Origin: Escherichia coli
Lineage (GTDB): Bacteria; Pseudomonadota; Gammaproteobacteria; Enterobacterales; Enterobacteriaceae
Reading direction: 5' to 3' (one strand)
NCBI RefSeq assembly: GCF_041248615.1
Contig: NZ_CP158426.1
Length of the DNA stretch: 64,000 bases
The notes under the pieces are model-generated. The model was not told where the DNA came from. It saw nothing but the letters and a program-made list of their open reading frames with translations, and made no database searches. Below, piece after piece: positions 7,129 through 55,123 of this stretch (position 1 is the stretch's first letter; every line of letters begins with the position of its first letter). The position numbers and the translations under genes were made by a program.

Positions 7129-7847
7129 CGCAGATGACGACCGCCATCAAGAGGGAAACTGCGTCCGGTGACAAAGCAGCTGGTAAGTAAGTAATCGACC
7201 AGGTCGATTACTTCTTTCTCGCCAGGCGCGGTTTTCATCAGTGATTTATTCAGCGCCTGTTGTCGATATTCGGCATCATCATGCTCATTAAACAGGATCA
7301 GCGATGGCGCAATAGAATTCACTTTCACTTCCGGTGCCAACTTGCGGGCAAACGAGCGGGTCATATTATCCAGTGCCGCTTTGCTTGCAGCATAGGCAAT
7401 ATGTTTGTCGCTACCGCGCTCCACCACATAATCGGTAAAGTGAATAATATCGCTGGCGGCGTGTCCGTGCCCACGCAGTAATCTTTCCAGGGCATGGTTG
7501 AGTAGATATGGGGTATTAACGTGGATCTGCATCATGCAAGCCAGTACGTCGGTCAGTGGTGTACTTGGTTTTTCTGCCATCCACGCGCTGGCGTTATGCA
7601 AAATAGCACGCAGGCCATGGGTGCTTTTTAGTACTTCATCGGCAAACGCCATCACACCGTCGTTGGTCGAAAAATCAGCCTGAATACACTGCGCACCTGC
7701 GTTAATCAGTCCATCAATGGCTGGATAGTGCGTCCGATAGCTGATAATCACCGGTTGCTTTTGATTAATGAAATGCCATGCGAGGGCGAGGCCGATGCGA
7801 CGACCACCGCCAGTAATTAATATTGGCAAGGGCTGGGCTTTACCCAT
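7125..7847 (-). CDS. folM: Dihydromonapterin reductase (SDR family), 240 aa
   Basis: Track ORF 240 aa with SDR Rossmann motif (ILITGGGRRIG); 4-nt convergent overlap with ydgC. Confidence 0.9.
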   Translation of the reverse strand: MGKAQPLPILITGGGRRIGLALAWHFINQKQPVIISYRTHYPAIDGLINAGAQCIQADFSTNDGVMAFADEVLKSTHGLRAILHNASAWMAEKPSTPLTDVLACMMQIHVNTPYLLNHALERLLRGHGHAASDIIHFTDYVVERGSDKHIAYAASKAALDNMTRSFARKLAPEVKVNSIAPSLILFNEHDDAEYRQQALNKSLMKTAPGEKEVIDLVDYLLTSCFVTGRSFPLDGGRHLR

Positions 7848-13851: not shown

Positions 13852-13855
13852 CCCT

Positions 13856-13884
13856 GACGGCCTCTGCGGAGGCCGTCACTCTTT
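13856..13884. terminator. Hairpin shared by convergent pntB and tqsA (probable bidirectional terminator)
   Basis: GACGGCCTC/GAGGCCGTC perfect 9-bp stem with TGCG loop, followed by T-rich tract on plus strand; overlaps tqsA stop. Confidence 0.6.
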
Positions 13885-16008: not shown

Positions 16009-16050
16009 ACGCTGCCCGCGCTGTCGGGCAGCGTTTGAACATTATTTTTG
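16009..16050. terminator. Hairpin plus T-run between convergent mdtI and ydgD
   Basis: ACGCTGCCCG/CGGGCAGCGT 10-bp stem followed by TTGAACATTATTTTT. Confidence 0.6.
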
Positions 16051-22299: not shown

Positions 22300-23508
22300 A
22301 GTCCGCGAAATTACCGACGCAATTACGCAGGCAATCAATAAACCGGGGAGTAGCTGATACTCCCCGGTCATTTCACATATCATCAACGTCGACATAATCG
22401 GCGCGTGCGTGGTTGCCGCCAACAGTGTCGCCATCCCGGTCAATCCGAGTAAAAGCGTAATTTCTTCGCCATCAGGGAACCATAATCCCAGGCTACGACC
22501 ATACAACATGCCAATGGCAAGACCGATAAATAGCGTCGGTGTAAAGACACCACCGGGCGCGCCAGAACCACTACTCGCCAGCACGGCAAACAGTTTACAG
22601 AGGAAGATCCCGGCAATGATCATTAACAGTGGCGGGGCGGTTAAAAAGGATTGTACGGTGCTATAGCCGTTGCCCCACACTGCAGGTGTGAACAGGGAAA
22701 GCAGCCCCACGATCAACCCGCCCAGTGCCAGTTGCCAGGGCGGCGCAAGTTTGAGACTCACAAATCCACGATGACAGGCGTTCATTAACGTTAACAACAG
22801 TGGTCCGCACAGACCTGCCAGCACACCTGTACTGATAATCAGCGCATAGTCACGAGCCTGAACCGTCACTGAGAGTTGTACGCTGTAGAGTAACGCGTCG
22901 CTATGATTAATCAGATTGCTAACCAGCAACGCCACGACGGCGGAAATAATCACCGGGCCGAGAGAGGCCAACATCATAGTGCCAAACAGCACTTCGGCTA
23001 TAAATAAACTGCCAGCAAGCGGGGCGCGATAGGCCGCAGCCATTCCCGCCGCAGCTCCACAGGCGATCCATAATTTCCACTCCTGGCGTGGCGTAAAACG
23101 TTGGGCAAAACAGGAGGCGGCAAGGGCAGCTAAAAGAATCATCGCACCTTCGCGACCAATTGCACTGCCGCTGGTTACTACCAGCAGAGAGGCAAGCGAT
23201 TTAACCAGGCTTGCTGCGTAATCGAACTGCCCATCGGTTTGCAACGCTTCCATGTAATCGGTCGGCGCATGAGGGCGTTGCTGGGTAAATTTCTGCCAGC
23301 CCATCAGCAACAAACCCGCCGCCAGTCCGCCGAGCGCCGGAGTTAGCAGCCGTCGCCACGGGGAAAGATTTGTCGCTGCATTGACCAGACTGCCCGAGTC
23401 ATTATTGAGGAACAACCACTCCAGTAGCAGCATCGTATGACGAAACCCGGCAACGGCAAAGGCCGCGAGAATACCGACGACTGTTGCGATAAGCAGACGG
23501 CGGAACAT
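22252..23508 (-). CDS. clcB: ClC-family voltage-gated chloride channel, 418 aa
   Basis: Track ORF 438 aa; start placed at [12 protein letters not shown] (complement ATG 23506-23508); GSAIGREG and GGVFTP ClC motifs present. Confidence 0.88.
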
Positions 23509-33520: not shown

Positions 33521-33552
33521 TGACAAAAGATATTCTATTTCATCTTTTGTCA
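33521..33552. promoter_or_regulatory. Perfect inverted repeat TGACAAAAGAT-N10-ATCTTTTGTCA upstream of rspA (candidate operator)
   Basis: 11-bp arms, 10-bp spacer, centred about 145 bp upstream of rspA ATG; overlaps shorter palindrome GTCAGCTGAC. Confidence 0.4.
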
Positions 33553-40974: not shown

Positions 40975-43020
40975 ATGACAACAATGAATCCTTTCCTTGT
41001 GCAAAGCACACTGCCGTATCTGGCTCCCCATTTTGATCAAATTTCCAATCATCACTATCGCCCGGCATTCGATGAGGGAATGCTGCAAAAGCGGGCAGAA
41101 ATTACTGCCATCGCGCTTAACCCGCAAACGCCTGATTTCAACAATACTATTCTGGCACTGGAACAAAGCGGAGAATTACTTACCCGCGTTACCAGCGTCT
41201 TTTTTGCGATGACTGCGGCGCATACCAATGATGAATTACAGCGTCTTGATGAACAGTTTTCCGCTGAACTGGCGGAACTGGCTAATGATATCTATCTGAA
41301 CGGTGAATTATTCGCGCGGGTAGATGCTGTCTGGCAACGCCGTGAATCCCTGGGGCTTGATAGTGAATCCATCCGCCTGGTGGAGGTGATTCATCAACGT
41401 TTTGTCCTTGCCGGAGCCAAACTTGCGCAAGCTGATAAAGCAAAATTAAAAGTACTGAATACAGAAGCTGCGACCCTGACCAGCCAGTTTAACCAGCGGT
41501 TACTGGCAGCAAATAAATCCGGCGGTCTGGTTGTGAACGATATCGCGCAGCTGGCAGGAATGAGTGAACAAGAGATAGCGCTGGCGGCAGAGGCGGCTCG
41601 CGAGAAAGGTCTGGATAACAAATGGCTGATTCCGCTGCTGAATACCACCCAGCAACCAGCGCTTGCTGAACTGCGCGATCGCGCGACGCGTGAAAAACTG
41701 TTCACTGCGGGCTGGACGCGAGCGGAAAAAAATGATGCCAATGATACCCGCGCTATCATTCAACGTCTGGTGGAGATCCGTGCGCAGCAGGCGAAACTGC
41801 TTGGTTTTCCTCATTATGCCGCATGGAAAATCGCCGATCAGATGGCAAAAACACCTGAAGCAGCACTCAACTTTATGCGGGAAATTGTTCCAGCGGCGCG
41901 TCAACGTGCGAGCGATGAATTAGCCTCCATACAGGCGGTTATCGATAAGCAGCAAGGCGGGTTTAGCGCGCAGCCGTGGGACTGGGCATTTTATGCCGAA
42001 CAGGTACGGCGGGAAAAATTTGATCTTGATGAGGTGCAGCTCAAGCCATATTTTGAATTAAACACGGTGTTGAATGAAGGTGTATTCTGGACCGCGAATC
42101 AGCTCTTCGGTATTAAGTTTGTCGAACGTTTTGATATTCCTGTCTACCATCCTGACGTTCGTGTGTGGGAAATTTTTGATCATAATGGCGTGGGGCTGGC
42201 GTTATTTTACGGTGATTTCTTCGCCCGTGATTCAAAAAGCGGCGGTGCATGGATGGGCAATTTTGTTGAGCAATCAACGCTTAATGAAACGCACCCGGTA
42301 ATTTATAACGTTTGCAATTATCAGAAACCCGCTGCCGGTGAGCCTGCGTTGTTACTCTGGGATGATGTCATAACCTTATTCCATGAATTTGGTCATACGC
42401 TGCACGGCCTCTTTGCCCGCCAGCGTTATGCCACGCTTTCCGGCACCAACACGCCGCGTGATTTTGTCGAATTTCCGTCGCAAATCAACGAACACTGGGC
42501 AACGCATCCGCAGGTATTCGCTCGCTACGCCCGGCATTATCAGAGCGGGGCAGCAATGCCTGACGAACTGCAACAGAAAATGCGTAATGCCAGCCTGTTC
42601 AATAAAGGGTATGAGATGAGCGAACTGCTTAGCGCCGCACTTCTCGATATGCGCTGGCATTGCCTGGAAGAAAACGAAGCAATGCAGGATGTCGATGATT
42701 TCGAATTGCGGGCGCTGGTGGCAGAAAATATGGATCTTCCCGCTATACCGCCACGCTATCGCAGCAGTTATTTCGCCCATATTTTTGGTGGCGGATATGC
42801 CGCAGGTTATTACGCTTATCTGTGGACGCAAATGTTGGCCGATGATGGTTACCAGTGGTTTGTTGAGCAGGGCGGATTAAAGCGTGAAAATGGGCTGCGT
42901 TTTCGCGAGGCGATCCTTTCCAGAGGTAACAGCGAGGATCTGGAACGCCTGTATCGACAATGGCGCGGTAAGGCACCTCAGATTATGCCGATGCTGCAAC
43001 ATCGTGGCTTGAACGTATAA
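40975..43020 (+). CDS. dcp: Dipeptidyl carboxypeptidase II (M3 family), 681 aa
   Basis: Track ORF 703 aa; start placed at MTTMNPFLVQ (ATG 40975) with AGGAGAAG RBS; HEFGH zinc motif present. Confidence 0.93.
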   Translation: MTTMNPFLVQSTLPYLAPHFDQISNHHYRPAFDEGMLQKRAEITAIALNPQTPDFNNTILALEQSGELLTRVTSVFFAMTAAHTNDELQRLDEQFSAELAELANDIYLNGELFARVDAVWQRRESLGLDSESIRLVEVIHQRFVLAGAKLAQADKAKLKVLNTEAATLTSQFNQRLLAANKSGGLVVNDIAQLAGMSEQEIALAAEAAREKGLDNKWLIPLLNTTQQPALAELRDRATREKLFTAGWTRAEKNDANDTRAIIQRLVEIRAQQAKLLGFPHYAAWKIADQMAKTPEAALNFMREIVPAARQRASDELASIQAVIDKQQGGFSAQPWDWAFYAEQVRREKFDLDEVQLKPYFELNTVLNEGVFWTANQLFGIKFVERFDIPVYHPDVRVWEIFDHNGVGLALFYGDFFARDSKSGGAWMGNFVEQSTLNETHPVIYNVCNYQKPAAGEPALLLWDDVITLFHEFGHTLHGLFARQRYATLSGTNTPRDFVEFPSQINEHWATHPQVFARYARHYQSGAAMPDELQQKMRNASLFNKGYEMSELLSAALLDMRWHCLEENEAMQDVDDFELRALVAENMDLPAIPPRYRSSYFAHIFGGGYAAGYYAYLWTQMLADDGYQWFVEQGGLKRENGLRFREAILSRGNSEDLERLYRQWRGKAPQIMPMLQHRGLNV

Positions 43021-43031
43021 ACACCACCAAT

Positions 43032-43061
43032 GGCTGGCCTGGAGAAATCGCCAGGCCAGCC
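43032..43061 (+). terminator. Strong hairpin 12 nt after dcp stop (terminator-like, no U-tract)
   Basis: Perfect 11-bp stem GGCTGGCCTGG/CCAGGCCAGCC with 8-nt loop. Confidence 0.4.
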
Positions 43062-43384
43062 TGGTTAGAGCAGTAATTGCAGCAGCTGGGCGAGGGCAAA
43101 CCTCACCGCTAATGCTAATACCGTTTCGCAGTCGCCAGCAAAATTACTTTTTTTGTATACCCTTCCGTTATAATAATTTTCAAATTTATAAATCTGATTG
43201 TTCTGAAATATGTTTAAGACTCTTTAATCTTCTTCTTACTTTAGTGAGTAAAATTCTCTGAATATTTGACAGCTAGTTGCCTGATTTTAAATGCCTTATA
43301 ACAATTGGCAGTATTCTTATTTGTCAATTATAAAAATAGCAACCAGACTTAATAAGTCAAACCAAACGCAATTAAGGAGTCAGT

Positions 43385-43777
43385 ATGAAATTTCAGGCCA
43401 TTGTATTAGCAAGTTTTCTTGTCATGCCTTATGCGTTGGCAGATGACCAGGGCGGATTAAAACAGGATGCAGCGCCACCGCCGCCTCATGCAATAGAAGA
43501 TGGCTATCGCGGAACCGATGATGCAAAAAAAATGACCGTTGATTTCGCAAAAACCATGCATGATGGCGCTTCGGTTTCACTACGCGGTAATTTGATTTCT
43601 CACAAAGGAGAGGACCGTTACGTTTTTCGCGATAAGAGCGGTGAAATTAATGTTGTTATTCCTGCGGCAGTCTTTGATGGACGAGAAGTTCAGCCGGACC
43701 AGATGATCAACATTAGCGGCAGTCTGGATAAGAAAAGCGCGCCGGCCGTCGTTCGGGTCACTCATTTGCAGAAATAA
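43385..43777 (+). CDS. ydeI: Periplasmic OB-fold stress-resistance protein, 130 aa
   Basis: Track ORF 130 aa with signal peptide [19 protein letters not shown]; AAGGAG RBS. Confidence 0.85.
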
Positions 43778-44031
43778 AAATAAATTAGCCTGATGGCCTG
43801 AACTACTGGGCCATTAGGGTATTGGGTTATGCTATTTGTCATCCTTTTAATTGCGATAATGCAGGCTTAATTTACAGAATTAAACACTTTTTTATCTGCT
43901 GATTTTGTTTCAAATCACAATGTTATCTCAGAGATGACTCATAACTTCGGATTTCTATGAAAATATTGACGTAATTTTGCTTTTCTCCCGTTAGAATAGC
44001 GCGCACAAGGAACTGTGAAAAAGGAGTGGCA

Positions 44032-50724: not shown

Positions 50725-54845
<4,121 letters not shown>

Positions 54846-54874: not shown

Positions 54875-54898
54875 TCAGGCTCTGTGATCAGAGCCTGA
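54875..54898 (-). terminator. Hairpin downstream of marB (terminator candidate for marRAB)
   Basis: 10-bp stem TCAGGCTCTG/CAGAGCCTGA with 4-nt loop, 7 nt beyond marB stop. Confidence 0.5.
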
Positions 54899-54904
54899 CA
54901 ATAA

Positions 54905-55123
54905 CTACATAGCGTGTTGATTATAATAGGGCACGCCGAGCGCATCCGACTTATCACTGCCAGTACCCATGTGATTTAAATCAAACGGTGGTTGTTCCTG
55001 CGATGGGGGAACAACCACGACATTGGCACAGGAAGTAACAACCGGCTGCGTGGTTTGTTCCGCAATGCCCTGCGTGGAAAAGAGAATAAACGCAGCTGCT
55101 ATTGCGGATAAAAGTGGTTTCAT
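54905..55123 (-). CDS. marB: Multiple antibiotic resistance protein MarB, 72 aa
   Basis: Track ORF 72 aa MKPLLSAIAAAFILFSTQGIAEQTTQPVVTSCANVVVVPP... Confidence 0.9.
   Translation of the reverse strand: MKPLLSAIAAAFILFSTQGIAEQTTQPVVTSCANVVVVPPSQEQPPFDLNHMGTGSDKSDALGVPYYNQHAM

Follow-up and report, generated by a model that had tools for sequence, protein, structure and literature searches.

The genes dcp and ydeJ of Escherichia coli converge on a gap of a few tens of nucleotides, and in the 64-kb stretch of DNA analysed here (the window) this gap raises the question of how the two transcription units are brought to an end, as it is occupied by a strong hairpin that lacks the T-run of an intrinsic terminator and is bordered by a ydeJ gene from which most of the coding sequence has gone. 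The hairpin might be a 3'-end structure, a terminator of some other kind, a repeat, or a trace of the event that removed ydeJ.

The dcp-ydeJ locus

A segment of 1.2 kb around the locus (window positions 42600-43800) is 100% identical to NZ_LT599825.1, from E. coli isolate NRZ14408. The elements of the gap and its borders are the following:

43018..43020, + strand: stop codon TAA of dcp (sequence; RefSeq annotation of the identical record NZ_LT599825.1)
43026..43029, unstranded: 5' half of an outer helix, ACCA (MFE and centroid structures, both strands)
43032..43042, unstranded: left arm of the hairpin, GGCTGGCCTGG (sequence)
43043..43050, unstranded: loop, AGAAATCG, the part that differs most from one E. 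coli strain to another (AGATATCG, ATTTATCG, ATTTACCG)
43051..43061, unstranded: right arm, CCAGGCCAGCC (sequence)
43062..43065, unstranded: 3' half of the outer helix, TGGT, which overlaps the first base of the ydeJ stop codon (complementary strand)
43065..43145, - strand: 3' remnant of ydeJ, 81 nt (last 26 codons plus stop), annotated as a pseudogene (annotation; alignment to intact K-12-type ydeJ)
43143..43144, unstranded: junction of the ydeJ deletion (pairwise and multiple alignments)

K-12-type strains have an intact ydeJ of 519 nt, and their dcp-ydeJ gap measures 43 nt (also in MG1655) against 44 nt in the window. Compared with these strains, 475 bp are missing (positions 2044-2518 of the K-12-type locus L002), corresponding to ydeJ codons 1 to ~146 plus 35 bp upstream, which bears out the 'ydeJ-less gap' noticed in the original prediction. 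The stop codon of the remnant is at 43067-43065 on the minus strand, and the deletion junction lies 82 nt beyond the hairpin. Next to the junction is a run of seven T (43150-43156) created there by the deletion; we considered it as part of a terminator and rejected it, since no GC hairpin precedes it in the fold.

A two-sided stem-loop without a U-tract

The inverted repeat at 43032-43061 (GGCTGGCCTGG-AGAAATCG-CCAGGCCAGCC) forms a perfect stem of 11 bp, nine of which are G-C pairs, closed by a loop of 8 nt, and begins 11 nt past the dcp stop codon, as originally described. The main stem is lengthened by the 4-bp outer helix, in which 43026-43029 pair with 43062-43065, a bulge of 2 nt lying between the 5' half of this helix and the main stem. 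An 81-nt context folds at -31.1 kcal/mol (z = -2.9) on the + strand and at -33.1 kcal/mol (z = -4.0) on the - strand, and the hairpin remains an independent module when folded in contexts of 145 nt and 276 nt.

What the original prediction had missed is that this element is two-sided. It sits between convergent stop codons, where it takes up 30 of the 44 nt and begins 3 nt past the stop of ydeJ. Because the sequence is a near-perfect palindrome, the same stem-loop forms equally in dcp-sense and ydeJ-sense RNAs, at about -25 to -29 kcal/mol. Both arms of the stem consist of NCTGG pentamers in tandem, and CCWGG (Dcm) sites are present at 43038, 43051, and 43060, that is three in 27 bp, where their mean spacing in the window is ~400 bp.

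Canonical intrinsic terminators carry a U-tract of ~7-8 nt directly 3' of the stem. We could not find any such tract right after the stem on either strand, the first 8 nt (TGGTTAGA on + and ATTGGTGG on -) containing three T each, nor any A-tract upstream of it, and a consensus terminator scan did not call the hairpin. The missing T-run had thus been correctly noted. An E-value search of 42500-43600 against Rfam 15 returned chance-level matches only, the best overlapping one being ar7, which scores 14.9 bits where the family's gathering score is 60 (E = 2.7).

A probable shared 3' end for convergent transcripts

The hairpin between dcp and ydeJ is best classed as a known kind of element, a 3'-end stem-loop devoid of a U-tract and common to a convergent pair. 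With moderate confidence, and by analogy with described systems, we favour the reading that it is the shared 3'-end stem-loop of the convergent units dcp (+) and ydeJ (-), which would pause the polymerase and block exonucleases, release being achieved by Rho or by collision. We prefer this reading because the hairpin fits both the Rho class and the collision class of 3' ends, and because the dcp-sense RNA past it is untranslated antisense sequence which, after a G-rich start, becomes C-rich.

Concerning the Rho class, nearly all Rho-dependent transcripts of E. coli end just past stable stem-loops without U-tracts or A-tracts, with a mild enrichment of C over G downstream, and these ends are made when PNPase and RNase II trim back transcripts that Rho has terminated diffusely further downstream; REPs account for 24% of such stem-loops (Dar and Sorek, 2018; PMC6061677). 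The dcp/ydeJ hairpin is similarly a stable, GC-rich stem-loop shortly past a stop codon (that of dcp), has neither a U-rich tail nor an upstream A-tract, and is not a REP. It differs in that G outnumbers C in the 40 nt directly downstream on the + strand (C7:G15), a composition that is not rut-like. A region where C predominates comes only after these:

43102..43141, + strand: C-rich, G-poor stretch (C14:G7), 41-80 nt downstream in the dcp-sense RNA (composition count)

This stretch is a candidate Rho-loading region, and in K-12-type strains the antisense-ydeJ RNA beyond +100 likewise has 13-19 C against 8-10 G per 40 nt. The original proposal of a 'Rho-dependent or RNase-protective 3' structure' therefore stands as the best available reading, in virtue of its match to the class of Dar and Sorek and of the C-rich stretch, the support being one of analogy.

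Concerning the collision class, Ju et al. (2019) and a follow-up preprint (10.1101/2022.10.23.513370) describe bidirectional terminators between convergent genes which encode hairpins, unlike intrinsic terminators, and the preprint proposes that such hairpins pause the polymerase and bring about termination via head-on and trailing collisions. As presented in the preprint, the overlapping bidirectional terminators of Ju et al., with ynaJ-uspE as the model, resemble the dcp/ydeJ locus in having a short gap between convergent stops filled by a palindromic hairpin that folds in both transcripts, unlike a strong intrinsic terminator. However, ynaJ-uspE is there given a longer U-tract on one side, whereas the hairpin studied here has none on either, and in the window strain the partner of dcp is an 81-nt pseudogene remnant. 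Terminators of this class are further marked by overlapping 3' ends from the two strands and by a dependence on convergent transcription.

Under the favoured reading of a shared pausing and blocking stem-loop, the same structure would form just past each stop codon in dcp and ydeJ RNAs and, as it has no U-tract, would not act as an efficient intrinsic terminator. RNA polymerase would pause at the hairpin, and the polymerases getting past it would run into untranslated antisense sequence with more C than G, where Rho would release them or, if the ydeJ promoter of the strain is active, they would come off on colliding head-on with an opposing polymerase. PNPase and RNase II, both 3'-to-5' exonucleases, would afterwards degrade the tail as far as the hairpin and so produce a stable mRNA 3' end. 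In the window strain, since ydeJ is reduced to an 81-nt remnant, the hairpin would now serve mainly dcp.

We looked for mapped RNA ends in supplementary files 1-3 of Adams et al. (2021), whose coordinate format was verified on the mgrR and ydfG entries. Their curated Term-seq list has no 3' end between MG1655 positions 1,622,824 and 1,628,294 (~5.5 kb), hence none for dcp or ydeJ, and no Rho-termination region is reported between these positions, supplementary file 2 having none at 1624-1627 kb. This absence may reflect low expression, and not a negative result at the hairpin. No entries for dcp or ydeJ are present in the TERMITe tables or in the supplement of the collision preprint (10.1101/2022.10.23.513370). 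In Salmonella, ydeJ (rdsA) is described in the literature as having a low mean expression score and a supercoiling-sensitive promoter.

Hairpins at gene ends across the window

The window contains five perfect inverted repeats with stems of 11 bp or more and loops of 3-10 nt, against 0.14 expected from dinucleotide shuffles of the window (~35-fold), and they cluster at gene ends, above all in convergent gaps. The dcp/ydeJ hairpin is well beyond chance, yet hairpins of this type are over-represented in this genome in general. We folded each convergent gap of the window, using the RefSeq gene map. Nine convergent pairs have gaps of 24 bp or more, and every one of these gaps holds a strong hairpin. 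In ydfI/ydfZ, marC/ydeA, and dgcZ/mgtT the gap hairpin has a T-run on one side; in pntB/tqsA (13855-13878), in the gap between the bgl pseudogene and marB (54875-54898), and in dcp/ydeJ, T-runs are absent on both strands. The dcp/ydeJ hairpin is therefore one instance of a recurrent architecture. Taken alone it matters little, since it is already known that the mRNAs of E. coli have a protective stem-loop at their ends, with or without a U-tract, and that a single palindromic hairpin is often common to two convergent genes; the dcp/ydeJ hairpin adds one more example.

Several neighbouring structures can be recorded beside these. The hairpins at 13855-13878 (pntB/tqsA), at 16009-16034 (mdtI/ydgD), and at 54875-54898 (glycosyl-hydrolase pseudogene/marB) are perfect, GC-rich, 9-10 bp long and have weak or absent T-runs in convergent gaps. 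The remaining perfect 11-bp inverted repeats are found inside the 3' end of folM (7189-7213), inside clcB downstream of bioD (22342-22368), between ynfA and rspA, where the repeat is AT-rich (33521-33552), and inside marB (54988-55018). At ~53100-54328 an IS3-family transposase gene with a programmed frameshift interrupts the family 1 glycosyl hydrolase gene, which belongs to a PTS/porin sugar-utilisation cluster separating eamA from marB in this strain.

Variation of the hairpin within Escherichia

In an alignment of nine E. coli sequences variation is greater in the loop than in the stem, and the 44-nt spacer as a whole is more polymorphic than the adjoining dcp codons. Most E. coli have the loop AGATATCG, which contains GATATC and makes the 30 bp a 28/30 symmetric DNA palindrome; this symmetry is broken by the loop of the window strain, AGAAATCG, and by the B2-type loop, ATTTATCG. 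The stem also varies. The left arm of K-12 is short of one G, and the stem of RM9975 has an uncompensated U.C mismatch. In B2-type strains (~1,390 genomes) a G of the right arm is replaced by A, again uncompensated. The resulting C.A mismatch weakens the dcp-sense stem from -28.8 to -18.2 kcal/mol, and the ydeJ-sense stem has a tolerated G.U at this place (-25.6 kcal/mol). The compensating T-A pair was found in none of the 5,426 complete E. coli genomes, a synthetic compensated query matching at best with one mismatch.

A hairpin is kept in every sampled E. coli variant and in two divergent Escherichia, with folding energies of -15 to -29 kcal/mol on the + strand and -17 to -29 kcal/mol on the - strand. 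Compared with E. coli, the divergent Escherichia L012 (Dcp 94% identical) has one compensatory change from a G-C to a U-A pair, and its hairpin has lost the outermost pair and gained a C-G pair at the base of the loop, that is a shift of register. These comparisons provide modest evidence that the hairpin as such, rather than a particular sequence, has been maintained in Escherichia, and the element appears loosely conserved.

Such variation bears on a further reading, namely that the palindrome has no present function, has been inherited in Escherichia and is slowly drifting, and only seems meaningful as intergenic hairpins are common. Uncompensated mismatches in large lineages, with no compensated variant in 5,426 genomes, the polymorphism of the spacer relative to dcp, the lack of a recorded 3' end or Rho region in Adams et al. 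(2021), and the unrelated sequences of the hairpins past dcp in other genera are all consistent with neutral drift. We nonetheless consider it unlikely, given the ~35-fold excess of long perfect stems over shuffles in the window and their concentration at gene ends and convergent gaps, the stable fold in all variants, the compensatory pair and register shift in L012, and the presence of some hairpin near the dcp stop in almost every species examined.

Structures downstream of dcp in other enterobacterial species

In 38 of 80 enterobacterial species representatives we identified a textbook terminator past dcp, formed by CCGGG-N-CCCGG followed by a T-run and usually preceded by an A-rich stretch; the sequence shared by these 38 species (flanks of L015-L089) is AACCGGGC-N-GCCCGGTTTTTT. 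The figure comes from a motif count, automated scoring of hairpins and T-tails having undercounted the T-runs by absorbing A/U flanks into stems. This terminator is found in Citrobacter, Enterobacter, Leclercia, and Klebsiella. None of the five Escherichia representatives has it, and unrelated hairpins lacking a U-tract stand there instead. The canonical terminator and the hairpin of the window are alike in their position past dcp and in being GC-rich stem-loops of similar size, but the latter lacks both the T-run and the A-tract and is unrelated in sequence, and the Escherichia hairpins are not homologous to the CCGGG terminator. A replacement of the dcp terminator in Escherichia would fit the idea of terminator turnover, in which Rho-independent and Rho-dependent types are switched.

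More generally, the hairpins downstream of dcp in other genera are unrelated in sequence to those of Escherichia, and in nearly all the species looked at a hairpin of one kind or another lies within ~60 nt of the stop codon of dcp; this suggests that selection acts on the presence of a hairpin and not on its sequence. We found only two loci outside Escherichia where a convergent ydeJ is within reach of dcp: in Citrobacter sedlakii it adjoins dcp, and in Salmonella enterica subsp. diarizonae it lies ~0.7 kb away.

The hairpin might alternatively be a weak, non-canonical intrinsic terminator, a strong stem-loop with a partly U-rich tail at which some polymerases would be released with no need of Rho or of collisions. 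The stem is indeed very stable, and the tails (AUUGGUGGUGUUUAUA on the ydeJ strand and UGGUUAGA on the dcp strand) are partly U-rich, that of the minus strand having 8 U in 16 nt; moreover, the ynaJ-uspE element released 9% and 39% in single-molecule assays despite poor U-tracts (10.1101/2022.10.23.513370), and transitional cases with reduced U content have been discussed (Dar and Sorek, 2018; PMC6061677). However, there are only three T in the first 8 nt on each strand and no upstream A-tract, the terminator scan made no call, the curated MG1655 list of Adams et al. (2021) has no Term-seq 3' end there, and 38 of the 80 species show what a textbook terminator past dcp looks like. Intrinsic release on its own is for these reasons quite improbable, and we retain the shared stem-loop acting with Rho or collision as the preferred reading.

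Distribution of ydeJ among E. coli genomes

Of the 5,426 complete E. coli genomes, 3,618 have the ydeJ body and ~1,800 do not, so that about two thirds of the genomes have an intact ydeJ facing dcp across the hairpin and about one third have kept the hairpin without the ydeJ body. In the one B2-type strain compared, R4, the deletion junction is the same as in the window and is accompanied by a second deletion into ydeI. The common junction suggests a single ancestral deletion; if the deletion was single, the retention of the hairpin in genomes lacking ydeJ reflects shared descent and is not independent evidence of selection.

The control region between ydeI and ydeJ has been retained:

43284..43360, - strand: ydeI-ydeJ divergent control region, with two sigma-70-like sites facing the hairpin and the ydeJ remnant (consensus scan; alignment)

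These promoter-like sites have equivalents in K-12-type strains, and their count is not above that of shuffled sequences. Residual convergent transcription may therefore persist in the window strain, from sites that are weak and at chance-level counts. It is conceivable that a short orphan transcript starts in the retained ydeJ promoter region and has its end at the hairpin. According to the literature, sRNAs have been predicted in Shigella on the far side of ydeJ.

The presence and absence of ydeJ may amount to a natural test of a stricter version of the collision model, in which the hairpin would be a pause site that needs an oncoming polymerase, its weakening in B2-type strains would reflect relaxed selection, and an orphan RNA of ~200-300 nt (a size taken from the promoter-like sites) would possibly end at it. 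We regard this combination as improbable and put it forward as a long shot. Were a collision-only pause true, dcp read-through should rise in strains lacking ydeJ, and strains with and without ydeJ that retain the hairpin could serve as a comparison set for the RNA polymerase collision model of bidirectional termination.

Readings at the level of DNA

That the palindrome is a DNA-level site, either bound by a dimeric protein or serving as a cluster of Dcm methylation sites, and not an RNA structure, is very improbable. With the common loop AGATATCG the 28/30 symmetry of most E. coli would suit such a site, as would the density of CCWGG; however, the centre of the palindrome is its least conserved part, a position between two convergent stops is not operator territory, and the clustering of CCWGG follows from the stem sequence itself.

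The hairpin resembles REP/BIME palindromes, which are also extragenic, GC-rich, found in 3' UTRs and ascribed a possible role as terminators or stabilisers (10.64898/2026.03.23.713779), but it differs from them in being single copy in each genome, with no family of copies. At E <= 1e-3 a search of the 5,426 complete E. coli genomes gave 5,409 places in 5,408 records, and overall about 5,410 of these genomes have the hairpin once, its locus being found in 5,416; at E <= 10 the median is still one place per genome, with extra weak places only in strains having the most symmetric stems. By an estimate from bit scores, the extra places fit a match of the palindrome with its own reverse strand. There is no second exact copy of the hairpin arm in the 64-kb window.

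The original prediction raised the possibility of a repeat-element remnant bordering the gap. In a wider form, with the hairpin derived from a dispersed repeat (REP/BIME-like or the end of a mobile element), as a remnant or a copy, which mediated or marks the ydeJ deletion, this notion draws on its palindromic, GC-rich and extragenic nature and on the proximity of a deletion, but is next to untenable in view of the single place per genome, the self-matching nature of the weak extra places, the absence of another arm copy in the window and of an Rfam match, and the presence of the hairpin in strains with ydeJ intact. The single locus per genome in the 5,426 genomes, together with the lack of a second arm copy in the window, rules out a generic repeat element; a deletion scar is ruled out by the hairpin standing beside the intact ydeJ of K-12-type strains, where it lacks one left-arm base, and by the 82 nt that separate it from the junction. 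A few matches fall on plasmid-labelled records (4-7 places for the dcp-ydeJ spacer and two for ydeJ), and these may be chromosomal segments in plasmid records.
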